Assembly (NCBI GenBank): GCA_003140935.1
Contig: PLLJ01000045.1
Coordinates: 2,767 to 66,766 of the forward strand
DNA from: Candidatus Omnitrophota bacterium
GTDB lineage: Bacteria > Omnitrophota > Omnitrophia > Omnitrophales > Aquincolibacteriaceae
Length of the DNA stretch: 64,000 bases
Reading direction: 5' to 3'
Translations under genes and position numbers: made by a program
The notes under the pieces: model-generated
What the model saw: only the letters and a program-made list of their open reading frames with translations
Database searches by the model: none
What the model was told of the DNA's origin: nothing
In this document: piece by piece, positions 7,122 through 52,830 of the stretch
How the letters are laid out: each line of letters starts with the position of its first letter
Numbering within the stretch: position 1 is the stretch's first letter

Positions 7122-8945
7122 TTAAAACCGACGGCTCGAGAACTTGACGCCGAAGCGAAGGTCGTAATGGGGAATAAGCGGCGGTTCACCATCTTGTTTG
7201 GCGAACTGGGTCCCGCCCACTCCGACGAATTCGCCGAAGATCGCCGTCTTAGCAAGCCACTCGTTCTCTTTCCACCGTTCGGTCCTGAACGGCATGATCC
7301 TCAGACCTGCGGCGACAAAGTATTGGTTCTGGTAAAAGAACGAAAAGGAGGCATTATTGACGTGCTCGAAGCGCATGTAAGGCATCAAAACAAGTTCGTC
7401 ATTAATGTAGTTTTGCGGCAGCGGGATCCCGGGAAGTTTGATGCCCAGGGTGACTTCTGAGTTAGCAATGAAAGCATTAAAGCTTTTTTCGGAACTGAAA
7501 TTGGTCTTGGAAACGAAATAATTCCCGAAATATTCGCCCCAGACATACTGGTGAAGGTAATCCGAGAAAACCTCGGGTTTCGTCTCGCCAAGCGACGGCG
7601 GTTCTGTGCCCCATTCGTAGTAACACTGAAGACCCCAGACTAGATCGTTGTCACGGCTGTTCGTGATATTGTCCTTGATATTGAATTGATCACCGTACTT
7701 GATATAAAAACGGTAATTCCGCATCCACTCCAGGATCGGGATCCCCCCGAACGGCTGGAAATTCTCAACCCAGGGATTGCGGGCAAGGGGCCGCCATTCC
7801 AAACCTGCCCAAAGCTGTAAATTGCTGGCAAAGTCCGCGGAATCGGACTGCAGGCTGACCGTTTCTTCGATGAAGGGAGAGATATTATCCAGCGGAAAAC
7901 GGATCCCGCTAAAGACCAGGCGATTGGTCCAAAAACCCACCTGCGTGTCGAAGCCTTTGGCCGCGAGGTTGGTCTGGCGCCAAGAGGTCTCGCCGAAGGA
8001 TTGCCACGTGATCGCGGTGCCGCAAGGCGTTCCTTGGAGGACCCCGTACATCTTCTCACCGATGCCCATCTGGTCGGTGAATTTGAGGATGAGTTCTTCT
8101 TCTTTTTTGAATTGTGCGGGCGTTTTGACCTCGATGGGTTTTTCCGCCTCGGGCACATAAACCGGCGCGCTGCGCACGGCCTCGGCGAAATTCCCGCCCC
8201 GCGATTCCACATTCGCTTTACTCGCAATGATCGCGGTCATAGCCTCTTCAGAAGACGCAAACGCCCGGTCCCCGACCCAAAACAGATCCGTGACCTGGCC
8301 CTTCGCGTTGGGGATAGGAAGCTGGCGTATTTCGACCCCTTCGAAATTAGCCGTCTTGAGGTTCTTCTTGATGTAATCGTCGACAGCCTTCACGTCTTTA
8401 AGACCGGAAAGGTGACGGGACTTCACGGCCCCGCCGCCAAAATCCGTCACGATGGAAAATTCGGCGTCCTGCTCACGGGAGTGGCTCTTGAGGACCGGAA
8501 ATCCACGGACCTCGCTCATTTTATGATCGAGCTTTTGCGGGGCCGCGGCAAAAAATTGTTCGGCGAAAAGGTTGGTCGTATGTTCGACCCGGCCTTCAAG
8601 CTGAGAGGCGCGATGGATTCCGGCGGCCGGGGACCGAACGGGTTTTGTTTCTGCGACGGGTGGGGTCATAGGTTGAATCTCAGCCCCAGAAGAAGCCGCG
8701 GGTTGGACCTGAGCCGCAAGCGGGGGGACTTGCTCTGTGGTCACGGCCGGGACCGGGGCAGGTTTTGTTTCCGCGGCAGGTGGAGCAGCAGGTTGGGCCG
8801 CGGGTTGGGCCGCGGGTTGGGCTTCGGCCGTAGAAACGGCCGCGGGTTCTATTTCAACAACGGGAGTTTTTTCTTCGGCAAAAGATGGGAAAGCTGCGGA
8901 TAGAAAAAAAGCAATGAAGAATATTAAAAAGTTTTTAATTCTCAT
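7122..8945 (-). CDS. Secreted outer-membrane protein (~607 aa) with Pro/Ala-rich linker (AAQPAAQPAAQP) and C-terminal putative beta-barrel ending in F
   Basis: ORF track 7122..8984. Signal peptide MRIKNFLIFFIAFFLSAAFPSFA begins at 8945. Alternating amphipathic strands toward C-terminus, terminal ...FSSRRF. Confidence 0.6.
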   Translation of the reverse strand: MRIKNFLIFFIAFFLSAAFPSFAEEKTPVVEIEPAAVSTAEAQPAAQPAAQPAAPPAAETKPAPVPAVTTEQVPPLAAQVQPAASSGAEIQPMTPPVAETKPVRSPAAGIHRASQLEGRVEHTTNLFAEQFFAAAPQKLDHKMSEVRGFPVLKSHSREQDAEFSIVTDFGGGAVKSRHLSGLKDVKAVDDYIKKNLKTANFEGVEIRQLPIPNAKGQVTDLFWVGDRAFASSEEAMTAIIASKANVESRGGNFAEAVRSAPVYVPEAEKPIEVKTPAQFKKEEELILKFTDQMGIGEKMYGVLQGTPCGTAITWQSFGETSWRQTNLAAKGFDTQVGFWTNRLVFSGIRFPLDNISPFIEETVSLQSDSADFASNLQLWAGLEWRPLARNPWVENFQPFGGIPILEWMRNYRFYIKYGDQFNIKDNITNSRDNDLVWGLQCYYEWGTEPPSLGETKPEVFSDYLHQYVWGEYFGNYFVSKTNFSSEKSFNAFIANSEVTLGIKLPGIPLPQNYINDELVLMPYMRFEHVNNASFSFFYQNQYFVAAGLRIMPFRTERWKENEWLAKTAIFGEFVGVGGTQFAKQDGEPPLIPHYDLRFGVKFSSRRF

Positions 8946-11507: not shown

Positions 11508-11751
11508 AAGGCTTGCCAGTCTTTTGGTTACAAGCTGGTGTATTGTATCAAAAATCCTGGGAACGGGGAAAGGGAAACGCTTTTTTACCATGGGGACTCG
11601 GGACTTGTGCCTCGGGACTCGTTTAAAGAAGAATTTTCGAGTCCCTAGTCCCGTACTGAATGACGGGTAGAAATTAATGGTTATTCAGTACTGCACTGGC
11701 TTCCAATAAAAATTTCAATGAGAGCCAGGCGAACTACGAGTCTCGCGAAAA

Positions 11752-12930
11752 TTATACGAGTATAATTTTAGCAGGTTCGAAACCGTTGAAATTGGGGACG
11801 GCGCTGGCCGAAGAGTAGGCGCCGATATTCTTGGCGTAAACCACATCCCCGACATAAAGCTCGGGCAGTTCTTCGTCATTGGAAAGAATATCGAAGGAAT
11901 CGCAGGTGGGTCCGGCCAGCGTGGTCTTGTATTTGGCCCCGCGGCGCAGGGTCTTGAACTCGTACTTGCAGTGGTCAAAGACCATCCCGGAAAAATCCTG
12001 ATAAACACCGTCGTTCAGGTAATAGAAATTCTGATTGTCACGGAACGCGCGGCCGATCACCTGCGTCACAAGGATCCCCGCAGGACCGGCGAAAAAGCGC
12101 CCCGGTTCCGCGATGAATTCCGTTTGTTTCGAAAAAAGCGACTTCATCTGCTTGCGGATCTCGGCGGCCATACGCTCAAAATTGATGCCGATCTCGTTCT
12201 CGAAATGCTGGATCGGGAACCCGCCGCCGATATCGACGGTCTTAAGCGGCATGTCGTTCTCCCGGGCCTCCCGGAAAATAGCCGCCGTCAGCTCGAGCGC
12301 CTGAAGATAATTCTCCACGTTCGTGGATTGCGACCCGACATGGAAGCTCACGCCCCGGGGCACCAGCCCGAGGTTCTTGGCTTTCCGCAAAAGATAAAAG
12401 GCCTGGTCCGGTTCCGCCCCGAATTTGAGCGAGAGCTGCACCACGCTCCCCCGGTTCGCGACCTTGATGCGGATGATCACGTGCGCCTTGGGGAAATTCT
12501 CCGCGATCTTGTAAAGTTCGGCCTCGTTGTCAAAGGTCATGAGACGTACCCGCCGGCGGCGGGCCGTGATGAGATCTTCCTTGGATTTGATGGTATTGGC
12601 GAAAATGATGCGGCTCGGGGACACGCCGTGCCTCAGGACCGCTTTCATTTCCGCGGCGCTCGCCACGTCGAAACTGGTGCCGAGTTCCGCGAAGGTCTTC
12701 ACGATCTTCGGATGCGGGTTGGCCTTGATCGCGTAGTAAGGCGTGACTTCCGGAAAGGACTTCTTGAAGCGGGCGAATTGTCTCTCAAGCACGCTCTCGC
12801 GGATCAGCATAAAAGGGGTCTTATGCTTTTTGAGCATCATGCGGATAAGGTTCTCGGCCCCGGAGATCTCGACCGGCTTGGGCTTTTCCAAAGGCGTTTG
12901 AACGGGTGCGTCCAGAACGAGTTGTGCCAT
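11752..12930 (-). CDS. Type III PLP-dependent (alanine-racemase fold) ornithine/basic amino-acid decarboxylase
   Basis: YAIKANPHPKIVKTF, FDVASAAE, HVGSQ, IDIGGGFP, EPGRFF motifs of the ODC/DapDC family. Adjacent to a homospermidine synthase, suggesting putrescine supply. Confidence 0.8.
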   Translation of the reverse strand: MAQLVLDAPVQTPLEKPKPVEISGAENLIRMMLKKHKTPFMLIRESVLERQFARFKKSFPEVTPYYAIKANPHPKIVKTFAELGTSFDVASAAEMKAVLRHGVSPSRIIFANTIKSKEDLITARRRRVRLMTFDNEAELYKIAENFPKAHVIIRIKVANRGSVVQLSLKFGAEPDQAFYLLRKAKNLGLVPRGVSFHVGSQSTNVENYLQALELTAAIFREARENDMPLKTVDIGGGFPIQHFENEIGINFERMAAEIRKQMKSLFSKQTEFIAEPGRFFAGPAGILVTQVIGRAFRDNQNFYYLNDGVYQDFSGMVFDHCKYEFKTLRRGAKYKTTLAGPTCDSFDILSNDEELPELYVGDVVYAKNIGAYSSASAVPNFNGFEPAKIILV

Positions 12931-14446: not shown

Positions 14447-14581
14447 TTTCTCTTTCTCTCTCCGTCCGTTCAATGAAGAAGGGACGAATACTACATCAAA
14501 AAAAAATCCACAGCAAGAAATACCATGGGGAAAACGCGTCGGGGGAAGAGAACGGCGTCCCAATCCTCCGAGACATCTCAA

Positions 14582-14735
14582 GGGTTGATTGGGACTGTCC
14601 TAATACTTATCAATTTCCGCACAACGGAAATTGGGGCTGTCCAAGTCAGCCATCCTGGAAATAAAACGAAAGACTTGGACTGCACTGAACTTCCATTAGG
14701 TTTTATGGGTTGTTCAGTGCGGCCGGTTTATCGGA
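14582..14735 (+). repeat. R1 structured intergenic repeat (three consecutive hairpins); near-identical copy at 39681..39830
   Basis: caatttccgcacaacggaaattg; gtccaagtcagcc...(A-rich loop)...gacttggac; gcactgaac...gttcagtgc. About 90% identical to the copy at 39.7 kb. Confidence 0.8.
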
Positions 14736-24916: not shown

Positions 24917-25199
24917 AGACCTTTTTCCCCTTTCTGCTTTTTGTCGAACGGTCCCATTTTCTCTTTCTTATTTTGACCGCCTTCGCGGAACCCCTTTATC
25001 AAATAGTAACACTATTTTACGAAGATAGGACGAAGAACAAAGCGTTTTGAGGATGAGTCGAACGGTGCTGTCCAACTTTGGGCTCTATATCCTATCCGCC
25101 AAATTTCGCGGACGGATCCGTCCACGCCGTGTGGCGGATAGGGTATAGGGTTTGTCACTCATTCCGGGGTATTGCGCTCGCTTTACGGAATCCCCTCTA

Positions 25200-25300: not shown

Positions 25301-25375
25301 AACATAACCCCGAGTCCCGAATCCCGAGTCCCTGTATTATTGTGTCTCGCGTCCCGAGTTGCGAGTCCCCCGCTT

Positions 25376-28007: not shown

Positions 28008-28246
28008 AACTTTTCTATCTGCGTGTTCCAAGCCCCTGAAACTATACGGGTCCCGCACTGAACAACCCATAAGACCTATTGGAAGTTTAGTGCGCCATGA
28101 TTCTCTTTTTTTAAAAAATAAACGGGTAATCATGACAGTCCAAGTCGCCATTCAAGAAAAAAATGAAGACTTGGGCGGCACTCGCTTTCGATAAAATATT
28201 TTAATGAGAGCCAGTGCCGAGTTACGAGTCCCGAGTCCCCGGAATT

Positions 28247-30702: not shown

Positions 30703-31297
30703 TTTTTTTATCCGGTCAATCGGCTCATCTATCTTTTTTCTGACTTTTTTCCTCTCCTCAACCAGGACAATGCCATGATTGATTTAAAAATAAAAAAGGC
30801 GCTACCGCTGTTATGAAGTTATCGACAATAGTAACGCCTCTATTGATAAAAACTCCCCCGCCTGCGATTAAACCGAATGTCGCTTTTGAGGGTAAATGCG
30901 GCATCGCATCCAAGGAATGGCTATTTCTGACGCGGATCGGACAAGATTGTCAAAATCTTGCCGAAGCCGCCCTGGTTTTACATTATTCAAATCAATCGGA
31001 AAACTAGGGCTGCACTAATTTTCTTTTAAAAAAATTTATCGAAAATCAGTGCGTACCAAAGCATTGGGCTTTGATGCATTCAACCGGTCCCCGGGGTGCC
31101 AGCTTGTCCGCCTCTGGCGGAGTACTGTTCTATTCCGCTTCCGGTTGCCATATATCATATCCGCCAAATTTCACGGACGAATCCGTCCACGCTGTGTGGC
31201 GGATATGATATACGGTCTGTCACCGCCCCGCGTCTTTTGTCCTCGTGCCCCGAGCTACGAGTCCCGAGTCCCGTCTTCATTTGTCCCGATTCCCCGT

Positions 31298-31834
31298 TTA
31301 TATCTTTTTCGATTCCTGTTCCAGGCGCTTCATTTCTTCCAGGCTCGAGTTCTCTTCCCCGGCAATCTGTTGTCGGTTGTCCCCATCTTTATTCGAGTCC
31401 CGAGGAGCGAGTCCCGAGTCCCGCGGTGTTTCGTTCGAGTCCCGAGCTACGAGTCCCGAGTCCCGTGGTTTTTCGTCCGTCGTCTTGGCCTCAGGGGAAG
31501 AAAGTCCTTTTTTTGAGTCCTGTTCCAGGCGCTTCATTTCTTCCAGACTCGGGTTCTTTTCCCCGGTAGTCTGTGGTCGGTTGTCCCCATCTTTATTCGA
31601 GTCTCGAGCTACGAGTCCCGAGTCCCTGTCTTTATTCGAGTCCCGAGGAGCGAGTCCCGAGTCCCGCGGCGTTTCGTCAGCCGCAGCTTTATTCGCTCGC
31701 CGGGCCGCGATCGCCGTCCTCGCCGCCCGGATGCCAAAGATCGCGTGCGCCGGAGGCGCTCCGAGAAGAAACGTCCCCGTCACCAGTCCCGCCATCACGA
31801 TTTTAAAAGTTTTCGACATCTCCAACCTCCCCAT
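31298..31834 (-). CDS. Secreted tandem-repeat protein (RDSGLAPRDSNKDGDNR repeats), encoded by a ~230-bp x2 tandem DNA repeat built from the GAGTCCCGAGTCCC motif
   Basis: Signal peptide MSKTFKIVMAGLVTGTFLLGAPPAHA; two ~80-aa repeat units; the underlying DNA is a tandem duplication. Confidence 0.5.
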   Translation of the reverse strand: MGRLEMSKTFKIVMAGLVTGTFLLGAPPAHAIFGIRAARTAIAARRANKAAADETPRDSGLAPRDSNKDRDSGLVARDSNKDGDNRPQTTGEKNPSLEEMKRLEQDSKKGLSSPEAKTTDEKPRDSGLVARDSNETPRDSGLAPRDSNKDGDNRQQIAGEENSSLEEMKRLEQESKKI

Positions 31835-31929: not shown

Positions 31930-32250
31930 CTATTGTTCTTCCCTCGACCCATTGATCTCATCGCCCCGCGAATATCGTGCGGTGTCTCCGGCCTTATAAT
32001 ATTTTGTGACGGAAATGACGAATTCTAAAAAGCCCCGCGCTTTGAGCTCATCCTTGATCTTCTCCAAAAGCTCCTGTCCCGGATCTTTCTGGCTCCATAT
32101 AAAAAAAGAGAGCGTATCTTTCCGGACGGTCAAATGGTCCACATTCTCATGGGCCCTTAAGATCTGTTCGAGAGGGTGCACATCCTCCAGACGCAGAAAA
32201 CGCGACGGGAATTTGATCTCAATGATCGTTAAAGTGTTTAAAAGTTTCAT
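31930..32250 (-). CDS. Small hypothetical protein (106 aa) tightly bracketed by 34-bp direct repeats
   Basis: MKLLNTLTIIEIKFPSRFLRLEDVHPL...; direct repeats at 31886..31919 and 32252..32286. Confidence 0.45.
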   Translation of the reverse strand: MKLLNTLTIIEIKFPSRFLRLEDVHPLEQILRAHENVDHLTVRKDTLSFFIWSQKDPGQELLEKIKDELKARGFLEFVISVTKYYKAGDTARYSRGDEINGSREEQ

Positions 32251-32358
32251 GCGTACTATTCTACGAAGGAACGGCGAAGAATAAAGCCTTTTGCGGATTA
32301 AAACAACAAACGGAGAAATCAAACAATGGAGTCATCCCTTCCCTCTTTTGGATGGCTG

Positions 32359-32970
32359 TCATCTTTTTTTCAGAGTAGCTTTGTCTTTATAGCTTGTACA
32401 TCGCACATAAAAATCAAATTGAATTAAAAAAAGAAGTATTGCGAACATAATTGTTAGAAATAAATTTTTCGTTAAACTTAATAATCCTATCGCTAATAAA
32501 GTCCCATTTAAAAAAGCCATTAAAAATACGAGGATCGGGAAATGATGCAAAAAACCTTCAAAATGTTTTGGCTCCTCATCGGTTATCGGCAACTTCAAGT
32601 ATTTTGTCAGATCGTCTTCCAGACTATTATCTGTGAAATACTTGCGAGTAAGGTTTGCGCTTTTTGCATAAAAAATCATCCGCATCCTAAGATTCATTAT
32701 GATCGCAAGGAAAATAACTCCTATAACAACTAAAAAAAGAACTATATAGACAAATGGCACTGGCAGATTATACAAGTCCCAAGTGATGGAGTTTATTTCT
32801 CTTGTTAATGCTAAGAATAAAGAAAGCGGAATCGCAATAACACCAAAATAATATTTAAATAATTGATAAAGAATTGTATATAAATGCTCGTAAAGCTCAT
32901 GCAAAAGCTTGTGCTCCTGCATCATAAATTCAAATTCTTGCTGAGCAGATAGTTGAGGATGTTTTTCCAT
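32359..32970 (-). CDS. 4-TM membrane protein, last gene of the AT-rich island cassette
   Basis: AT-rich codon usage; four hydrophobic helices; no recognisable family. Confidence 0.6.
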   Translation of the reverse strand: MEKHPQLSAQQEFEFMMQEHKLLHELYEHLYTILYQLFKYYFGVIAIPLSLFLALTREINSITWDLYNLPVPFVYIVLFLVVIGVIFLAIIMNLRMRMIFYAKSANLTRKYFTDNSLEDDLTKYLKLPITDEEPKHFEGFLHHFPILVFLMAFLNGTLLAIGLLSLTKNLFLTIMFAILLFLIQFDFYVRCTSYKDKATLKKR

Positions 32971-32990
32971 TGCTATCTTTAATGGGGTCG

Positions 32991-34070
32991 TTATTTCCTT
33001 CCCAATCTTTCTAATTCCCGGTTGTATGATTCAAAGCCATGTCTTATGACTATGTTTTGCTCTCGTACTTTTCTTCGAAAAAGTTTAACTTGCCAATCCA
33101 TCCAATTCTGATGAATAAAATAATCCGCAGAAGTCTGCGCGACTCTTGGGTTATAGTTATCGAACGTTTGATTTAAAGGCCGATAACGGCAATCAGCGGT
33201 TTGAACTCCCCATTTTTTACATTCTTTAATTTTTTGCAACATTTCATAAAAATCATGTTCGAAGTTAGATATCATGAACACGTACATCTCTTTTGCTCTG
33301 TATCCGGCTTCGATCAGCATCTCGATTTGTTTTTTTATCATTTGGCGCTGGGAATATCCATGATCCCAAGCGATCCTCGGGTTAAGAAAATGTGCCTGCT
33401 TCAACAATTTCGCCAATTCTGGCGTCAAAAGCCTCCCGTCAATTCCGCACTGACTTTCAGAATAGACCGCTCGCCCATTGCACTTCGCATTCTTCAATTC
33501 ATCCAAAATGTCTTTTATATATGGATTAGCTAAAAGATTATTATCGTAAAAAATTACCCTATTGCTACAAATCTCATCTTTGATACTTTTTTTGGGAATA
33601 AATTCGGGCTCGATTTTCCAAGTTCCGCAGAATTTACATTTTCGCACACATCCTCTTGAAGAATGAACGATCTGATAATCGACATCAACTAAACTGTAAT
33701 CTGGCGCAGATGCTTCCGCCTTTGGATCCACGCCAACAAAAACTTTATCGCATTCAGATTGTTTACAGTGGTCTGGCATGAGTGATGCATAAATGCCACC
33801 GACAGTTATATGGGCCCTGGGATAATTCTTTTTGTAGAATTTCACACTATCCCACACGTATTTGGACCAATAGGTAAATAGAGAGGTAATCTTAATTTCA
33901 TCCGGACAAAACTCTCCAACCAGCTTGTCCCCTCGCACAAGTCGGACTTTATCACCATTTGCTTTGTGGTAACTGGCTAGCTTGAGTAAGCCAACAGGCA
34001 AAAAATCTCGGTGATTTTTGCTTTTTGCTGGAATCGGAAAACCTGGTTCCACTAATAATATTTTAGACAT
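32991..34070 (-). CDS. Radical SAM enzyme with N-terminal B12-binding-like (Rossmann) domain
   Basis: KILLVEPGFP...PVGLLKLASYH...HITVGGIYASLMPD (B12-binding-like); SSRGCVRKCKFCGTW (CxxxCxxC). 8-nt overlap with the upstream HD gene. Confidence 0.75.
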   Translation of the reverse strand: MSKILLVEPGFPIPAKSKNHRDFLPVGLLKLASYHKANGDKVRLVRGDKLVGEFCPDEIKITSLFTYWSKYVWDSVKFYKKNYPRAHITVGGIYASLMPDHCKQSECDKVFVGVDPKAEASAPDYSLVDVDYQIVHSSRGCVRKCKFCGTWKIEPEFIPKKSIKDEICSNRVIFYDNNLLANPYIKDILDELKNAKCNGRAVYSESQCGIDGRLLTPELAKLLKQAHFLNPRIAWDHGYSQRQMIKKQIEMLIEAGYRAKEMYVFMISNFEHDFYEMLQKIKECKKWGVQTADCRYRPLNQTFDNYNPRVAQTSADYFIHQNWMDWQVKLFRRKVREQNIVIRHGFESYNRELERLGRK

Positions 34071-35583
34071 TTTTATTTAACAAGGTTTCTGGTAATTTCA
34101 ATTTAATGCCATTAAATTTTATATTATTCATAACATCTTTGTACTCGGGGAGTTTTCGAGCTAATTGCTCAGGATTAGCCCATCGGACTTTAACTTCAGC
34201 GTAATTATCTTCAAAACGGAAACCATCAAAAATGGCAAATTCCGCCGTTTCTTCGAAAGAACCGTTTCTTTTCCAATCATGTATGCTATCTAAAAAAATT
34301 AATAATACGGCGAAAGGGAAACGAGAAATATTAATCGGGAAGACTTCATGCTTTCTGAGTTCTTTCCAGATTCTGCTGTCATGTAGCGCAATAGAAGTAA
34401 CCGCTGGTATAACATGGGTAACAATTAACGGCCTATTGGGACGGCTGGTCACGACTTTTGATTCGCGTAAAACTCTCACAAGAAATTGAAAACATCCTGT
34501 TACTCCATGCGATCTATGTTTTATCAAATGTTCTCGTAGTATGTCCTTGATACTAGAATCCTCATCTTCTGACATTTCGGGCGTCCAATTATTAAGGATA
34601 CGTTCGGAACAACAATGTCGAATGAAGGATTGTAATTGTATCGCAGCCTGCAAATAATCACTTTTATCAGCGATCTTTTCCAAACCAATTAGTTCTATAT
34701 CCTCATTGTACCCGTACATTTCGCCAATTAAGTTGCCTGCTTTTTGCGAAGGGTAACCAATATCATGGAATATAGAAGTAATTAACCAGATGTATTCGAT
34801 GGAAAAATCTTTTTCCCGAGGAAAAACATTTTTATAATATTTTTGAAATTCCGCATAGTATTTATCGATTATTACGCATCCCATTAACATAACTTGAAAA
34901 GAATGCAAATAATGCTCACGCGTGCCCTTCAATAAGGGCTCATAATATTTCAGCCTCAAGTAAGGTTCCGAAGAATAATGAAATCTTTTATTATCAAAGA
35001 TTTTCTTTATCGTCAAATCAACTAATTCGTATTCCTCCTCTGAGATATTTTTTGTTTTTCTTAATCGTGAATATTTCGATACAAAATCCTTTAGGATTTG
35101 GCGGTATGAAATATTGTCCAAATCGCCAACGTACGATAAAAGCTTATTTGGAACATGTCCATGCTCAGAAGCCGCCTTCTTTTTTATTAGTTGTTTATAT
35201 TTTTTTCCACTAATTGCTTTGGCTTTAATATCAAGAAGTACGGAAAGCGAAGAATTGCTTAACTGAATTAGCCCAAATCCATTATTGAAACATTCAGAAA
35301 ATATCTGATCATATTCATATTCCGGCGGAATATAATAATAAAATTCAAAATTTTTAATTTGTTTTTTTGCTTTGATGATTTCTTTAGCGCCATTCGCTGG
35401 AAAAGCATTGCTTGTATTTATATCAATTGAAATTAATTTGGACTTATAGCGGTAAAGAAGATCTGGGCTCCACGCAATACCTCTTAAAATCCGATCTCCA
35501 GCCTTTTGGGAAAGTCTTCGCCAGTTGTATTTTTTCACTAAAATTTTATTGAGTTTATCTAGAAAAATTTCTTTTTTTGACAT
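34063..35583 (-). CDS. HD-domain phosphohydrolase (506 aa) with dNTP-triphosphohydrolase-like motifs and an uncharacterised ~220-aa N-terminal region
   Basis: TREHYLHSFQV (compare dGTPase RLTHSLEV), SIFHDIGYP (HD), later HRSHGV and LDSIHDW. Confidence 0.7.
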   Translation of the reverse strand: MSKKEIFLDKLNKILVKKYNWRRLSQKAGDRILRGIAWSPDLLYRYKSKLISIDINTSNAFPANGAKEIIKAKKQIKNFEFYYYIPPEYEYDQIFSECFNNGFGLIQLSNSSLSVLLDIKAKAISGKKYKQLIKKKAASEHGHVPNKLLSYVGDLDNISYRQILKDFVSKYSRLRKTKNISEEEYELVDLTIKKIFDNKRFHYSSEPYLRLKYYEPLLKGTREHYLHSFQVMLMGCVIIDKYYAEFQKYYKNVFPREKDFSIEYIWLITSIFHDIGYPSQKAGNLIGEMYGYNEDIELIGLEKIADKSDYLQAAIQLQSFIRHCCSERILNNWTPEMSEDEDSSIKDILREHLIKHRSHGVTGCFQFLVRVLRESKVVTSRPNRPLIVTHVIPAVTSIALHDSRIWKELRKHEVFPINISRFPFAVLLIFLDSIHDWKRNGSFEETAEFAIFDGFRFEDNYAEVKVRWANPEQLARKLPEYKDVMNNIKFNGIKLKLPETLLNKNV

Positions 35584-35593
35584 ATATTTGGAA

Positions 35594-36592
35594 TTATTTG
35601 TTATTTATCATTTGGTCAATGGTGTCTCGAAGTTTTTTTAAAGAAACCAAGATTCCTTCCTTTCTTTTTTTATCAGTTTCCTTCTTTAAATCAAACTCAG
35701 ATAGCTGTGAATTTAATTTATTAATATTTTTAATTAATGAACGGCTTGTTGTTTTGCTGGTCAAGGTGGGTATTTGTACTTTTTTAGTTAAGTCGTTTTT
35801 CAAGTCTTCGATTGTATACTCGATGTTTTCAATAAATCTTTTTGCTGAAGCAGCAAAAATTTCGATTTTGTCCAACTTCTTGCAAGTCATGATGGCATCG
35901 GGTATCCAAAAGAATGCGCGAGTTGTCCCAAGAAGACCTTTTTCTGCTTTCGCTATAAGCTTCCCTCTAATTTCTTCCCTCGAGTGATCCTTAAAAGTTT
36001 GGGGTATGTTTTTTTCTAACTGTTCAACAAAATTTTGTTCTATCTGCACAAGGTAACTGTCATCCAGCTTATTCTCCATAACTTTTTCTTGCGTTTCTTT
36101 ATTAAACCTCAAAAGCCGCAATCTATCTTCGACCTTTTTTCCGTCCATTTTGGTTATCTTTGCTATTTCGCCAATTAGGTCTTGATCGGTTATCGATTTG
36201 TTTTTTCTTTTTATCAAATCAACATAGAATTTTAGCGCTTGGGCTTGCGCCATCGGCTCCCATTGTTCTCTCAGCATGTGAATTTGAAACATTCGTTTTA
36301 AGCCTTCCCCTTGGGCTTTGGCTTTTTTAATGGCCAACACATGGATGGGCACGCCTTCTCGTTTAACTTTTTGAGCAGCTTTAAGCCGTCTTTCGCCATC
36401 GAGCAAAATATATTTTTTGCCTTTTTTGCTATCGTTTTTAAAAACGATCAAAGGCACCATGACTCCAAATTGCCGAATGGATTCCTCTAGTGCTATGAAA
36501 TCCTTATCCTCATAATCCTGGCCTCTGGGATTATCTGGATTGAAAGCTATATCATTAGGAGAAACATACCTGATCTGCTCGTTTTTATTCAT
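35594..36592 (-). CDS. ParB/Sulfiredoxin-like N-terminal domain protein with Lys-rich helical C-terminal half
   Basis: VSPNDIAFNPDNPR...LEESIRQFGVMVPLIV...YILLDGERRLKAAQ (ParB box motifs); GGAGG RBS 6 nt upstream. Confidence 0.75.
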   Translation of the reverse strand: MNKNEQIRYVSPNDIAFNPDNPRGQDYEDKDFIALEESIRQFGVMVPLIVFKNDSKKGKKYILLDGERRLKAAQKVKREGVPIHVLAIKKAKAQGEGLKRMFQIHMLREQWEPMAQAQALKFYVDLIKRKNKSITDQDLIGEIAKITKMDGKKVEDRLRLLRFNKETQEKVMENKLDDSYLVQIEQNFVEQLEKNIPQTFKDHSREEIRGKLIAKAEKGLLGTTRAFFWIPDAIMTCKKLDKIEIFAASAKRFIENIEYTIEDLKNDLTKKVQIPTLTSKTTSRSLIKNINKLNSQLSEFDLKKETDKKRKEGILVSLKKLRDTIDQMINNK

Positions 36593-36761
36593 TCTATACC
36601 TCCATTTATTCCATAAATCATTTAAGATTTTTTATCTTTGTAGACGGAATCGATCCTACTTTCTTTCGTAAGTCAACGGAACACCGTCTGGGGAAAGACG
36701 TTAACTCCCCAATCTTATAGACGCACTCTTCGTTACAGGCAAGGGGAAAAAAGAAACCGCC

Positions 36762-37211
36762 TCAAAGATATAAGGCGCAGACGAAGGCGAGGGCGCCGGC
36801 GACGAGGTTGGCCAGGGTGCCGATGAGCCAGCGCTGGAGGTTATAGGCGGCGATCCGGTTCCTCGCGCTCCAATAGTACATCGGGTCGAGGCCTTCGATA
36901 TGCTCCGGCGTTTTGACGATCAACGCCCACGCCACCCATTTGGAAACGAGCTTGAACGCGAGCCACCCGACGATGATCCTGGCGGAATGCGTGGTGAACG
37001 CGATATAGAACAGGACCACTTCGAGAAGCCCGAGGACTTTGCCGAAGACCGGGCTTACCTGGCCGATGAGGAACGCCTTGGCCAGCTTCTCGTCCACGCA
37101 GTGGTAGTCTTCGCGCTTTCTCAGGAGCCTGAAGAGCCCGCGGATCGCGAACGACAGGAGCACGGCGACGGACAAACCCACCACAAAATGTTTCAGCGCC
37201 AGAAGCTGCAT
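36762..37211 (-). CDS. Membrane protein, unknown (GC-rich host-like composition resumes)
   Basis: Three or four TM helices. Confidence 0.5.
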   Translation of the reverse strand: MQLLALKHFVVGLSVAVLLSFAIRGLFRLLRKREDYHCVDEKLAKAFLIGQVSPVFGKVLGLLEVVLFYIAFTTHSARIIVGWLAFKLVSKWVAWALIVKTPEHIEGLDPMYYWSARNRIAAYNLQRWLIGTLANLVAGALAFVCALYL

Positions 37212-37267
37212 GTGAATCCCCCCTTTTCTTTAAAAAGTTTTTCCGTTTTGGACTAGTACTGTTCTCC

Positions 37268-37412
37268 ATTTGATTTTCCGCCACAATTCTTCGGACGGAT
37301 CCGTCCTTTGGCGGATAGGGGTTAACAGCACTTGTTCTCAAAAAAAACTTAAAGGTTAACAAGTGCTGTCCAAGTCGCCCTTAATAAAATAAAAACGAAG
37401 ACTTGGGCCGTA
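37268..37412. repeat. Composite of an R2 palindromic element (ccgccacaattcttcggacggatccgtcctttggcgg) plus an R1-type H1 hairpin (gtccaagtcgcc...gacttgggc)
   Basis: Inverse-orientation match to 52722..52830. Confidence 0.7.
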
Positions 37413-39560: not shown

Positions 39561-39680
39561 TCCAAAGGTCCTTTCTTCTATGTAAGGCGTACGGTGTACG
39601 GAGTACGGCGTCCCGCCTGTCGTTCCTGTTCAAAAAAGGCGGGGCAGTGCGTCCCAACCTTCCCATCCATTTTAAAGGCC

Positions 39681-39830
39681 GGTTGAGACTGTCCTAATAC
39701 TTATCAATTTCCGCGCAACGGAAATTGGGGCTGCCCAAGTCAGCCATTCTGGAAATGAAACAAAAGACTTGGACTGCACTAAACTTCATTTAAGCTTTAT
39801 GGGTTGTTCAGTGCGTCCGTTTAAGGAGTT
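39681..39830 (+). repeat. R1 structured intergenic repeat, second full copy
   Basis: About 90% identity to 14582..14735 across all three hairpins; its 3' end supplies the stop codon region of the adjacent gene. Confidence 0.8.
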
Positions 39831-40159
39831 TCCTGCGTCTCTTCCGGGTTCGTTTCTTCTTTTACCGGGGTCCCGAGGGGTTGGGCGGCCTCCAGATCGT
39901 CGATCCGGGATTCCAATTCCGCGTCCTGCCGGACCATGTACTTCATTTTGGAATCGTTCGTGTCGAGCCTGTTTTCCAATTGGCTTATTTTTGCCGCGAG
40001 GGCTTCCATTTTCGAGCCGCTCGCCTTGGCCTTGTTTTCCAATGCGTTCACCCTGGCCTCCAAAATGTCCGTACGGAAAGTATCCTCGACCGCGAGGACC
40101 CGGGTACCCGGAAGAAGCCCAAAGATCAGACAGAACGCGATTAGCAGTTTCTTCTTCAT
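39821..40159 (-). CDS. Secreted coiled-coil protein
   Basis: Signal MKKKLLIAFCLIFGLLPGTRVLA; heptad-rich body. Confidence 0.55.
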   Translation of the reverse strand: MKKKLLIAFCLIFGLLPGTRVLAVEDTFRTDILEARVNALENKAKASGSKMEALAAKISQLENRLDTNDSKMKYMVRQDAELESRIDDLEAAQPLGTPVKEETNPEETQETP

Positions 40160-40334
40160 TTCAGATCTCCTCTTTTTTTAGGGGATGCCTGCGGACAAAC
40201 GGGAAAGCCGGGGATAGAAGGAAGAACGTGAGGAGCCTGCCGGAAGGAGCTGTCTTTTTCATGACAAGAAGCCCAAGGTTCACGGAACGATAGACGGAGA
40301 ACGATCCGTGAGGCGTTCCCCGTTCGCACGGTTT

Positions 40335-40739
40335 CTAAATACTTTTCTGCGTTTCTTGCGGGTCCGTTCTTTTTTTAGATTTGTCCCCGGAGTTTTTCGT
40401 CTCGTTTTGGGCGGTCTCCAGATCGCTGACCCGGGATTCTAATTGGATCTCGTTCATCCGGGCCGCCAGGTTTCCCATTTTGGAGGTATTCGCGCCGACC
40501 CTGCCTTCCAATTGGTTCATTCTTGAATTTGAGATGTTCGCGCCGATCCTGCCTTCCAATTGGCTCATTCTTGACTCTAAGGTTCGCATCTTCGCGTCGC
40601 TCGCTTTAGCCTTCTCTTCCAATTCCTGCACTCTGTTGTTTACAGAGTACGTGCGGTTCGCATCATCGAACGCAAAGACCCGGGCACTTGGAAGAAGTAA
40701 AAAGACCAGACCGGACACGAGAAGTATTTTCTTGTTCAT
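40335..40739 (-). CDS. Secreted coiled-coil protein, tandem paralogue of 39821..40159
   Basis: Signal MNKKILLVSGLVFLLLPSARVFA; shares the EEKAKASxxKM...SQLEGR pattern and a similar upstream region (ttcagNtctcctttttt). Confidence 0.55.
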   Translation of the reverse strand: MNKKILLVSGLVFLLLPSARVFAFDDANRTYSVNNRVQELEEKAKASDAKMRTLESRMSQLEGRIGANISNSRMNQLEGRVGANTSKMGNLAARMNEIQLESRVSDLETAQNETKNSGDKSKKRTDPQETQKSI

Positions 40740-40830
40740 TTCAGCTCTCCTTTTTTATTTCATGAATGCGAACGGACGAGAAAGCCGGAGCTTCGTTTTA
40801 ATCTCTTAAGTTAAACCCGTTCTGCCGCCG

Positions 40831-51525: not shown

Positions 51526-51842
51526 TTTAGTATGTTTTTCTCCTTAAGGACATTCAAACTATCGAGTTCGGTATTATAGAAATGGCTCTATCCTTTGTCA
51601 ATTTAAGAAGTTACGCCATGACCCTCTTTGATCAAAAGAACGGGAGGCCATGACAGCCCAAGTCACCCTCATGAAAAAGAAATAAAGGCTTGGGCGCAAA
51701 ATGACCATTGGGACCGTCTTTTTCGATGATATGCTCTATCCCCTATTCCCAGAACCACTTACGTGATTTTCTCCATTGACAGGAACGCAGAAAACTCCTA
51801 TCCTTGTCCTCGATTTTATTTCTTAACGGGTGACAAGGATTG

Positions 51843-51890
51843 CCCCAATTTCAACTCCGTTGAAATTGATAAGAATTGGGACTATGTTAC
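51843..51890 (+). repeat. H0-type hairpin repeat (ttgccccaatttcaactccgttgaaattgat..gaattgggactatgt) immediately upstream of rnc
   Basis: About 90% identical to 59919..59962, with compensatory changes in the stem (aac/gtt versus atc/gat). Confidence 0.7.
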
Positions 51891-51894
51891 GCAC

Positions 51895-52644
51895 ATGTCG
51901 AAGCTGATATCCCCCAAAGATCCTCAGAGCAGGGCCTCTTTGCGTAAGATCCTCGGATTCCCGGTGAGGTCCCTCACTCTCTACCGCGCCGCGCTCACGC
52001 ATCCCTCTTTCCGCAATGAGAACGCGCGCATCACCCAAGACCTCGAGGATTTTGACCGGCTGGAATTCCTCGGAGATTCCATTTTAAATGAGGTCATTTG
52101 TCAGAAATTGTTCGAGAAATTCCCCGAGGCCGACGAAGGCATGCTCTCCAAGCTCCGCTCGATCCTCGTCTCTCAGAAGATCTTGAGCCGTATCGCGCAA
52201 GCCCTGGAGCTTCAACACGTCCTCCGGATCAGCAGAAACCTGCGCCAGAATTTCAAGGACTTTCTTAAAGCCAAACTGCTTACCGACGCGCTCGAGGCGC
52301 TTTTCGCGGCGATCTATTTCGATCGCGGCCACGACAAGATCGAGGCGTTCATTCTGAAACATTTCGAAAAATACTTTGATCCCAAACTCCTCTTCCGGCT
52401 CGACCCGAACCCCAAGAGCACGCTTCAGGAAATGACGCTCAAGAAATGGCAGAAGCTCCCGGAATACACGCACGCCTTTTCCGACAAGGGCGTCAAGACC
52501 ACGGTTTCGGCCGGGGGGAGACGCAAGGCTTCGGCCCTTCACAAGATCAAGCGGGAGTCCGAGGTCTTGGCCGCCAGGGCTTTGATCCGGCGGTTACGGA
52601 AAGAGTTTAAAAAAGTGAAGTCGCGCGGCCGGCGACGCGCCTAG
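51895..52644 (+). CDS. rnc: Ribonuclease III
   Basis: ORF track from 51763. Likely start MSKLISPK at 51895. DRLEFLGDSIL signature; degenerate C-terminal dsRBD. Confidence 0.85.
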   Translation: MSKLISPKDPQSRASLRKILGFPVRSLTLYRAALTHPSFRNENARITQDLEDFDRLEFLGDSILNEVICQKLFEKFPEADEGMLSKLRSILVSQKILSRIAQALELQHVLRISRNLRQNFKDFLKAKLLTDALEALFAAIYFDRGHDKIEAFILKHFEKYFDPKLLFRLDPNPKSTLQEMTLKKWQKLPEYTHAFSDKGVKTTVSAGGRRKASALHKIKRESEVLAARALIRRLRKEFKKVKSRGRRRA

Positions 52645-52721
52645 TGCCGCATCACGTTTGAAATTAGGGGTATGCGGTACAGCACTTGATTTTCATCCAA
52701 AAAATGATAGGAAATCAGTGC

Positions 52722-52830
52722 AGTCCAAGTCACCATCCATGTGAAGAAATAAAGACTTGGGCAGTACTGTTAACCCCTATCCGCCGAAGGACGGATCCGT
52801 CCGAAGAATTGTGGCGGAAAATCAAATGGA
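52722..52830. repeat. H1 hairpin + R2 palindromic element composite (inverse of 37268..37412)
   Basis: gtccaagtcacc...gacttgggc, then cccctatccgccgaaggacggatccgtccgaagaattgtggcgg. Confidence 0.7.

Follow-up and report, generated by a model that had tools for sequence, protein, structure and literature searches.

A probable new family of modular two-hairpin intergenic repeats in a Candidatus Omnitrophota clade

In a 64,000-nucleotide stretch of the genome of a Candidatus Omnitrophota bacterium (assembly GCA_003140935.1, contig PLLJ01000045.1, positions 2,767 to 66,766 of the forward strand; hereafter the window), a short hairpin, denoted H0 in a preliminary description, lies immediately upstream of rnc, the gene for RNase III, and again just downstream of glgA, the gene for glycogen/starch synthase, with its pairing preserved between copies that differ in sequence. 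This locus raises the question whether such a hairpin is a palindrome of the REP (repetitive extragenic palindrome) kind that is recognized by a protein, or an RNA structure, for instance an attenuator or terminator, that serves the neighboring gene. The hairpin is real but is only the 3′ half (P2) of an 83–88-nt non-coding unit, typically about 87 nt, that contains a second hairpin and covarying triplets. This two-hairpin unit probably represents a new repeat family akin to REP/BIME, REPIN and small hairpin MITEs (miniature inverted-repeat transposable elements) and not a gene-specific switch. Its copies are intergenic and modular, and the family is likely to be specific to a clade of Candidatus Omnitrophota. 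It is assigned to a general kind, as a new family, because the unit is not a REP doublet, lacks long terminal inverted repeats and flanks no RAYT gene in a conserved way.

The unit has the order X1-P1-X2-P2-X3, where P1 and P2 are hairpins, X1 is a flanking triplet of the form CNR, X2 is an internal triplet of the form YNG and X3 is a second CNR triplet that repeats X1. The P1 hairpin has an 11-bp stem, which varies freely in sequence yet stays paired (CCTTGTC/GACAAGG, CCTGACT/AGTCAGG, CCAAACT/AGTTTGG, CCAAGTC/GACTTGG and others), and a conserved, pyrimidine-rich loop of 22–24 nt (tttcATTtcTTTTC...AATGGt). The P2 hairpin combines an invariant lower stem, CCCCAATTTC/GAAATTG, with three covarying apical pairs and a 3-nt loop; 3′ of the stem come a GATAAGT bulge and then ATTGGGAC (ATTGGGA), which is able to pair back to CCCAAT, so that CCCAAT has two alternative partners, GAAATTG and ATTGGG.

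Both copies of H0 exist as originally quoted, and the Pfam assignments confirm the genes named next to them. Copy A, upstream of rnc, has the motif ttgCCCCAATTTC-AACTCCGTT-GAAATTGAT-AAGA-ATTGGGACTAtgt, with the ttg lead-in from 51840 and CCCC from 51843. Copy B, near glgA, has the motif ttgCCCCAATTTC-ATCTGTGAT-GAAATTGAT-TGGA-ATTGGGACTAtgt, with ttg from 59907 and CCCC (CCCCAATTTC) from 59910; the start previously assigned to it, 59919, is the end of the arm. The pattern common to the two copies is CCCCAATTTC-N9-GAAATTGAT-N4-ATTGGGACTATGT, and the N9 centers, AAC-TCC-GTT in copy A and ATC-TGT-GAT in copy B, contain the inner pairs AAC:GTT and ATC:GAT that had been reported to differ. The statement that an element called R1 carries C-CGT/GCG-G in the same scaffold also holds: minus-strand centers CGT-TGT-GCG and CGT-TGC-GCG belong to two further copies, C (14611–14635) and D (39705–39729), each within the 174-nt R1.

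When up to three mismatches are allowed, the 25-nt pattern has 7 matches in the window against 0.12 expected, and the 27-nt 3′ part has 2 exact matches where none are expected. A covariance model built from the family alignment finds the four full two-hairpin copies of the window (A, B, C and D), every one of them intergenic, together with at least five P1-type modules joined to other hairpins (Table 1). A partial inverted copy reported at about 11785, by contrast, is a chance match with three mismatches in coding sequence: positions 11772–11796 on the minus strand form the last eight codons and the stop codon of the open reading frame (ORF) 11752–12930(-), this coding sequence is kept in the related locus L011, and the family covariance model finds no match there. 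The four window copies yield fold z-scores from −3.1 to −5.9 on both strands (six RNA and three DNA folds); for copy A, the RNA fold has −27.4 kcal/mol and a z-score of −4.2, with −5.1 for DNA, and for copy B the z-scores are −3.9 on the plus and −5.9 on the minus strand.

Table 1. Copies, modules and neighboring features of the two-hairpin unit (positions refer to the window, except where another locus is named)
Feature	Position	Strand	Evidence or remarks
Copy A, full unit, 87 nt	51798..51884	+	sequence; model 96.1 bits, E 3e-21
Copy A, X1 (CTA)	51798-51800		
Copy A, P1	5′ arm 51798-51808; loop 51809-51831; 3′ arm 51832-51842		
Copy A, X2 (TTG)	51840-51842		
Copy A, P2	CCCCAATTTC 51843-51852; apex AACTCCGTT 51853-51861; GAAATTGAT 51862-51870		
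Copy A, 3′ side of P2	spacer AAGA 51871-51874; ATTGGGAC 51875-51882		
Copy A, X3 (CTA)	51882-51884		
Copy B, full unit, 83 nt	59869..59951	+	sequence; model 71.1 bits, E 3e-15
Copy B, parts	P2 core 59910-59937, apex ATCTGTGAT; ATTGGGAC 59942-59949; X3 CTA 59949-59951		
Copy C, full unit	14595..14682	-	apex CGTTGTGCG; triplets CAG/CAG/CAG; model 89.1 bits; repeat family D3
Copy D, full unit	39689..39776	-	model 88.7 bits
Lone P1-type hairpin	51656..51695	-	model positions 3-43, E 0.004; families D5/D7
P1 module with a different hairpin (GCACTGATTT...AAATCA.GTGC) replacing P2	52675..52764	-	30.7 bits, E 1.5e-5
P1 module, then non-P2 partner	37333..37410	-	29 bits, E 4e-5; families D5/D7
P1 module, then non-P2 partner	28099..28178	-	22.5 bits, E 0.0015; families D5/D7
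Diverged two-hairpin unit, P1 and A/T-rich second hairpin GCACTAATTTT..AAAAATT	30967..31053	+	31.2 bits, E 1.2e-5
rnc (RNase III)	51895..52644	+	Pfam Ribonucleas_3_3, E 1.5e-27
glgA (glycogen/starch synthase)	59961..61433	-	Pfam Glyco_transf_5, E 2.5e-87
Promoter-like site	51776..51804	+	-35 TTGACA 51776-51781, 17-nt spacer, -10 TATCCT 51799-51804; consensus scan 10/12
Y1_Tnp/RAYT-like gene, locus L094	2717-3437	-	
Y1_Tnp/RAYT-like gene, locus L086	7793-8000	+	
Y1_Tnp/RAYT-like gene, locus L070	3531-4186	+	

The preservation of pairing under sequence change, first noted for two copies, is borne out by 87 distinct aligned copies. Double-sided changes occur at 10 of the 11 P1 pairs and at all three apical pairs of P2 (21, 34 and 24 changes, respectively), that is, at 13 of 21 pairs in total. 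Stem cells are paired in 93% of cases, compared to 80% in shuffled alignments and 21–44% when the partners are slid; the covariation score is 0.43 compared to 0.18 in shuffles and at most 0.10 in the slid controls, and none of the 500 shuffles reached the observed values. Changes in the lower stem of P2 are more mixed. Among 152 copies from the loci and the window that match a fuzzy pattern, 25 carry lower-stem variants, some of them compensated (T:A to C:G in seven copies, T:A to A:T in one and C:G to T:A in one), and about ten copies have single uncompensated or wobble changes, the kind of change by which the preliminary description proposed to judge its claim. Counted on the strand of the unit itself, P1 has 86 G·T wobbles against 36 A·C mismatches; in copies antisense to their neighbors the ratio is 10 to 6, with no reversal, and these numbers are too small for the test to decide when it is split by transcription context.

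The triplets at the junctions follow a rule of their own. X1 and X3 are identical in 60 of the 87 copies, with 18.5 expected from permutation, and the excess persists within X2 classes (60 versus 50.6, a count that none of 5000 permutations attained). At its outer positions, X2 can pair with X1 in 74 of the 87 copies and with X3 in 79 of them. In the alignment, column 46 (X2) pairs with column 4 (X1; GC in 46 copies, AU in 36) and with column 91 (X3; CG in 43, UA in 37). The 46:91 covariation supports the outer of the two registers open to CCCAAT. At the center of the triplet, T·T is found in 42 copies, C:G or G:C in 17 and A·A in 12, so that this position is Watson-Crick paired only when it is G/C. 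The main X1/X2/X3 classes are CTA/TTG/CTA (25 copies), CTG/CTG/CTG (11), CCG/CGG/CCG (9), CAG/CAG/CAG (4) and CGG/CCG/CGG (3).

Beyond the window, one genome per GTDB species was scanned for the exact pattern CCCCAATTTC-N7-11-GAAATTGAT, and more than 113 genome stretches with the core pattern were found. Among the matches listed, 121 of 129 also carry ATTGGGAC downstream and come from 20 assemblies labeled either Candidatus Omnitrophota or simply as metagenome-assembled genomes (MAGs), with many blocks per assembly and up to about 15 from a single MAG; the remaining 8 of these 129 are chance matches from other phyla, without the 3′ part. The unit and its downstream gene share a strand in 68 cases and lie on opposite strands in 37, and the corresponding figures for the upstream gene are 56 and 55. 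Stricter gene calling gives 26 sense and 16 antisense copies, with 14 in divergent and 9 in convergent contexts. Among the 95 copies that could be classified, 27 are in divergent promoter regions. A start codon follows many copies at a distance of 0–50 nt, and the ends of four copies read ...GGGAC(C/T)ATG. The neighboring genes are unrelated (rnc, glgA, saccharopine dehydrogenase-like genes, DUF1016/SNase, sigma-54 activators, glycosyltransferases and kinases), and no protein family is enriched beside the unit: when the 824 ORFs of the loci were clustered all against all, common paralogous families emerged and no transposase cluster. Rfam searches of the window yielded nothing at the gathering score; around copy A there was no match even at E ≤ 10, and around copy C there was noise below the threshold only. 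Genes for tRNA or tmRNA were not found either, and a literature search on Omnitrophota repeats gave nothing relevant.

In the window, copies A, C and D are directed toward the following gene. The last conserved base of copy A, 51884, is 10 nt before the rnc ATG (51895), and the extended sequence, through ctatgt, ends 7 nt before it. Copy B, in which the P1 stem is a variant (CTATACTGTT/AACAGTATTG), occupies the spacer bounded by the leuB start (59777) and the glgA stop (59961), on the strand opposite to both genes, with 9 nt between its end and the glgA stop codon. The genes on the far sides of the two spacers are, according to Pfam, argC-like on the rnc side and leuB on the glgA side. Copy C is housed in a 174-nt composite repeat (R1, 14555–14728), in which a hairpin GCACTGAAC..GTTCAGTGC is followed by CAG, P1, CAG, P2, CAG and a hairpin TCCCAATC..GATTGGGA; copy D sits in a second 174-nt composite (39649–39822) with 86% identity to the first. 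Both composites thus consist of four hairpins with the single triplet CAG as separator throughout, and the fourth hairpin is GTCTCAACC..GGTTGGGAC in that of copy D as opposed to GTCCCAATC..GATTGGGAC in that of copy C.

The modules of the unit combine, as shown by the P1 module at 52675–52764 that is joined to a hairpin other than P2 (Table 1). Tandem units that share one triplet were found in loci L009 and L097, a comparison of L111 with L102 reveals one unit nested in the apex of the P2 of another, and in related genomes one or two units are contained within a larger conserved non-coding element. The sites are also variably occupied among relatives that are 80–90% identical to the window. At about 11505, L011 is filled, with the unit abutting an ATG, and the window is empty; at 55630–55641, L041 has a 190-nt composite where the window holds 12 nt; and the composite of copy C is absent from the orthologous site in L011, which contains unrelated sequence. 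The lone P1-type hairpin, located in the argC–rnc spacer with copy A and in the opposite orientation, is missing from the ortholog L095 (an indel in the alignment), where copy A itself is kept; an ortholog of copy B is present in L041. Another site is filled in L070 and L119 and empty in L118 and L121, and further filled/empty pairs are L108/L057, L088/L036, L050/L042 and L018/L061. An empty site has one triplet or a near match (CTA, CCG, CCT, TTA or xCG) and a filled site has two; the match of the empty-site triplet is exact in two clear cases (CTA and CCG) and extends to 2 of 3 nt in four others. Within conserved copies, change is concentrated at the P2 apex: copy A and its L095 ortholog differ at 5 of 9 apex positions and 3 of 78 elsewhere, and copy B and its L041 ortholog at 7 of 9 and 12 of 78 (Fisher p ~2e-4 in each case), with the pairing largely kept. 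The unusual features of the unit are the direct-repeat flanking triplets that pair with an internal triplet, the conserved T·T mismatch and the very fast turnover of the P2 apex between orthologs.

The larger non-coding element is itself a multi-copy sequence of about 300–400 nt in several Omnitrophota MAGs (L018 ~6180–6800, L026 ~2600–3000, L067 ~4350–4850, L087 ~7400–7800, L101 ~2500–2800, and also L043, L044, L048 and L061). Its 5′ part reads ...ggcttgagcctcgtcaccactcaggaatccccggcgtggattccctcgttcgccctccagtcctcgctcc... and its 3′ part ...gcgtgcctcgtctcaaccc...ggcgggaagtgtgttaagccacgctaaggaggccgagagccagggttt...gccatgcctcggtggggcatggc...aacacacttcccg. Inside it, a single P1+P2 unit or a pair of units occupies a constant position, and the genes downstream of the element are unrelated (rubrerythrin, GH57, ABC-F). 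Rfam yields no match to it at E ≤ 1, and the window does not contain it.

At rnc, the 5′ edge of copy A (X1 and the start of P1) forms the -10 element TATCCT of the best promoter-like site upstream of the gene, and this arrangement is kept in L095. Among the 27 copies with a TATCC edge, four, at three independent loci, have a perfect TTGACA 16–17 nt upstream, compared to 0.08 per control offset. If this site is used, transcription would start within P1 and P2 would be left in the 5′ untranslated region (UTR) about 10 nt before the rnc start codon. From this arrangement of sequence motifs, we infer that copy A has been co-opted locally as a putative rnc promoter. A separate and far more speculative reading is that the copy fixed before rnc has been recruited as promoter and leader hairpin for autoregulation of RNase III. 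The same spacer also contains a site that matches the sigma-70 consensus at 12 of 12 positions (TTGACA, 17-nt spacer, TATAAT) at 51573–51601 on the minus strand, directed toward argC.

Under the favored interpretation, namely that of a repeat of the REP type, which is the protein-recognized palindrome of the two options initially put forward, the unit would be copied or lost as a block at CNR sites and would be kept foldable by a trans-acting, structure-specific protein that recognizes one strand as a hairpin, with the invariant foot of P2 and the GGGAC end providing sequence-specific contacts. X2 would pair with the flanking triplets much like a guide with its cleavage site in single-strand transposition by HUH/Y1 enzymes (IS200/IS605, RAYT-type); the triplet rule and the strand asymmetry suggest such hairpin-plus-guide recognition by an HUH-type enzyme, a hypothesis to which we give a low probability. 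Some inserted copies would subsequently be co-opted locally, copy A through its edge as the -10 element of rnc and copy B as a hairpin just past the glgA stop. A more specific version of this scheme, which we regard as speculative and doubtful, is that the unit is a miniature strand-specific single-stranded DNA transposon, in which the internal guide X2, positioned between the feet of the two hairpins, specifies the CNR site at both ends. Were this guide reading correct, the subfamilies would home to different targets (TTG to CTA, CGG to CCG, CTG to CTG, CAG to CAG and CCG to CGG), a consequence as doubtful as its premise, and the family could offer, by the same long shot, a minimal form, diversified in nature, of the targeting by guide that IS200/IS605 transposases perform, spread through a whole candidate phylum.

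A number of observations weigh against the REP-type interpretation. When E. coli RayT was used as the query against about 800 kb of genome loci, three Y1_Tnp/REP-associated-type genes were found, each 45–330 nt from a unit, which speaks for the interpretation; none lies in the window. Two of these genes, in L094 and L086, have intact HUH and Tyr motifs and are directly flanked by another, GC-rich palindrome, CACGAACCCGGGTCGTG/ACACACCCGGTGTGT, with which they look like a separate REP-RAYT pair. In the third, from L070, RIH replaces HUH (one His lost) and Phe replaces the catalytic Tyr, and this gene seems to be inactive or domesticated; among the loci that encode an L070-type protein, a unit is present in 2 of 6, and in a metagenome scan for this type the gene is beside a unit in 1 of 5 further loci. 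A cognate RAYT or transposase for the unit is accordingly not established. Furthermore, the filled/empty pairs fit hairpin-stimulated deletion between 3-nt direct repeats as well as insertion, which the pairs cannot tell apart, and in half of them the empty-site triplet matches the flanking triplet at 2 of 3 positions only. The P1 stem and P2 apex are very diverse within one genome and do not cluster around a master sequence, which fits long-term selection at the host level as well as or better than ongoing mobility. All family members come from the exact-pattern scan, so that the search itself accounts for part of the invariance seen in the lower stem of P2, and the approximately 2:1 sense-orientation bias upstream of genes, together with the copies that end less than 50 nt from a start codon, leaves room for a role in RNA.

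The principal alternative is that the unit is primarily a functional RNA module of 5′ UTRs, intercistronic regions or 3′ UTRs, that is, a processing or stability element or a protein-binding site; we consider this unlikely, and equally so the specific roles that it might play as a site for RNase III or another RNase, a block to exonucleases or a control of translation at the start codon, in which case copy A would autoregulate rnc. An RNA module would account for the strong covariation in both stems, the conservation of the P1 loop and P2 bulge, the excess of G·T over A·C on the unit's strand, the preference for the sense orientation (downstream genes, 68 against 37; co-directional contexts, 26 against 16), the many copies close to start codons, and the conservation of copy A upstream of rnc in a relative of about 80% identity, where the promoter-like site would place P2 in the 5′ UTR. 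In E. coli, a hairpin in the rnc leader autoregulates the gene; RNase III usually requires a helix of about 20 bp, however, and those of the unit are 10–11 bp. Precedent for an RNA role of such repeats is provided by the Correia elements, the hairpins of which are bound or cleaved by RNase III and which create promoters (PMC2649163). Further difficulties are that Rfam offers no match even at E ≤ 10; that one-third of the copies, including copy B, are antisense to both neighbors and do not reverse the wobble asymmetry; that the adjacent genes have nothing in common; and that presence or absence of the unit at housekeeping genes of close relatives argues against an essential role in cis. Moreover, transcription from the predicted promoter of copy A would leave the RNA without an intact P1. 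The narrower proposal of an attenuator or intrinsic terminator, the other option of the preliminary description, is rejected: there is no U-tract (a T-run is absent both after P2, ...ATTGGGACTA, and after the reverse complement of P1), a terminator scan finds no site within the units, the orientation is mixed, with about one-third of the copies pointing against the neighboring gene, and the neighbors are unrelated.

Two other explanations dispense with a selected hairpin altogether. The compensatory changes could be a mutational by-product, with strand switching (quasipalindrome correction) or short-tract gene conversion replacing both arms of the apex at once. Templated correction of imperfect palindromes is an established mutational mechanism, the differences between orthologs are heavily concentrated in the apex, and the replacing apices resemble the commonest variants of the family, AGATTCTCT and AACTCCGTT. 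As the source of the whole pattern, this process is very unlikely, given that it leaves unexplained the persistence of the unit and the conservation, in 20 or more species, of the loop of P1 and the foot of P2, and that the T·T mismatch is retained in 42 of 87 copies instead of being "corrected". It is nevertheless compatible with, and not opposed to, the REP-type interpretation, and as long as concerted mutation of palindrome centers is a live option, the inference that compensation by itself proves selection on structure is weakened: the compensation reported originally is real, and the conclusion then drawn from it does not follow from it alone. An even more remote alternative, which we consider highly improbable, is that the unit is a double-stranded DNA site (an operator or a site for a nucleoid-associated protein, gyrase or an IHF-type protein), in which a dimer would read CCCCAATTTC...GAAATTGGGG in the duplex and the hairpin would be irrelevant. 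The invariance of both arms of the lower P2 stem across at least 20 species around a variable center is the pattern of a spaced inverted-repeat operator, the E. coli BIMEs bind IHF and gyrase, and the copies are enriched in divergent promoter regions (27 of 95). Such a site has no need, however, for complementarity of the three apical pairs or of the variable P1 stem, and predicts G·T and A·C in equal numbers, contrary to the counts. The 3′ arm is also not a simple mirror (GAAATTGAT..ATTGGGAC with a bulge of 9–10 nt), the IHF consensus WATCAANNNNTTR was not seen in the P1 loops or the P2 bulge by eye (no scan was run), and the spacing of a sigma-54 site (TGG..TTGC) is off by 1–2 nt.

Several other candidate identities were considered and rejected. 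A sigma-54 promoter (TGG...TTGC across the 3′ arm of P1) would have a GG-GC spacing of 13–14 instead of 12; a sigma-70 -35 element TTGACA in the 3′ arm of P1 is confined to a single stem subfamily and lacks a properly spaced -10; the ATG of a mini-ORF read antisense to the P1 loop (AGGAAAAGAATG) is not shared by the subfamilies; and compared to an integron attC site (RYYYAAC/GTTRRRY), the unit has AAT/ATT and its contexts are housekeeping genes and not cassette arrays.

The window also contains other repeats. A second family, in intergenic spacers, consists of tandem GAGTCCCGAGTCCC/GGGACTCGGGACT units (11593–11629, 25306–25369, 28213–28239 and 31229–31677) and shares GGGAC/GTCCC with the 3′ end of P2, a sequence resemblance that may reflect a common recognition determinant. 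A third, palindromic repeat, TATATCCTATCCGCCAAATTTCGCGGACGGATCCGTCCACGCCGTGTGGCGGATAGGGTATAG, is found at 25086–25158 and 31151–31223, with shorter GGACGGATCCGTCC copies at 1445–1474, 37285–37306 and 52789–52810; similar motifs, GGATCCGTCC, are present in L094 between the unit and the RAYT-like gene. Two pairs of inverted repeats are separated by 15 kb, one of 87 nt with 93% complementarity (37246–37332/52763–52849) and one of 61 nt with 79% (37416–37476/52621–52681); both adjoin P1 modules with a non-P2 partner and belong, as larger shared blocks, to the repeat system of the two-hairpin unit. A short way downstream of copy D there is a 224-nt direct repeat, 73% identical (39956–40179/40536–40759), with 48-nt sub-repeats (39948–40575); it overlaps the ORFs 39769–40293 and 40381–40809 and may represent either a repeat-domain protein or a further non-coding repeat. 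Finally, the region 32000–37400 is an island of low GC content (34–38% compared to about 55% elsewhere), with five consecutive minus-strand ORFs (32359–37362), a GC content at third codon positions (GC3) of 0.31–0.38 and repeat modules at its bounds; this island was probably acquired horizontally.

A modular repeat family explains several of the hairpin findings in the window at once and provides a covariance model for masking. The Omnitrophota are uncultured and poorly annotated, and the unit will be misread, locus by locus, as a small RNA, a terminator or a regulatory site and will break assemblies. If the triplet rule does reflect guide-directed targeting, the family would be a compact system for studying how HUH enzymes read hairpin and guide, with the diverged copies serving as a mutational scan, and at rnc the putative recruitment of a repeat as promoter and leader is open to test.

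Among known systems, the closest likeness is to the REP/BIME and REPIN-RAYT repeats of Enterobacteria and Pseudomonas, which are also short, extragenic, high-copy imperfect palindromes that fold in single-stranded DNA or RNA, occur in mosaic or tandem clusters, are vertically inherited and variably present at orthologous sites, and share genomes with Y1/HUH genes of the REP type; compensatory hairpin changes are common in REPINs (PMC3116915). The unit differs in being composed of two different hairpins in series, P1 and P2, instead of two inverted copies, with inverted repeats of only 10–13 nt in the P2 arms, in the conserved 22–24-nt loop and freely varying stem of P1, and in the flanking 3-nt direct repeats that pair with an internal triplet; in addition, no RAYT is flanked by the unit in a conserved way, and the copies in a genome show no single-master clustering. 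The Correia elements of Neisseria (CREE/NEMIS) and small MITEs resemble the unit as non-autonomous intergenic elements of about 100 nt; they are flanked by a short duplication (TA in CREE), to which the flanking triplet of the unit, most commonly CTA, may correspond. Correia elements create promoters at their ends and give rise to transcribed hairpins that are bound or cleaved by RNase III (PMC2649163), and copy A, too, forms a -10 box with its edge and sits before rnc. Unlike Correia elements and DDE-type MITEs, the unit has no terminal inverted repeats of 10–30 bp (only TCC.../...GGGA, up to TCCCAA in one subfamily), its flanking triplet is not fixed (CTA, CTG, CCG, CAG or CGG) and covaries with the internal triplet, and no DDE transposase is linked to it.

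The ends and miniature derivatives of IS200/IS605 elements share with the unit sub-terminal hairpins, the lack of inverted terminal repeats and strand-specific signatures. In IS608 and ISDra2, a short guide beside the hairpin foot matches the flanking cleavage or target sequence, partly by non-Watson-Crick pairs, and a comparable sequence pattern links X2 with X1 and X3 in the unit, where the conserved center is T·T or A·A. These insertion sequences, however, have separate left and right sites and guides and make no duplication, whereas here one triplet matches both ends and the unit has no adjacent tnpA or tnpB; the mechanism by which it would move is proposed only by inference. The pneumococcal BOX, RUP and SPRITE repeats are likewise modular intergenic repeats of interchangeable sub-elements that are predicted to fold when transcribed, but the modules of BOX are unrelated in sequence to those described here, belong to another phylum and are joined without covarying triplets between them.

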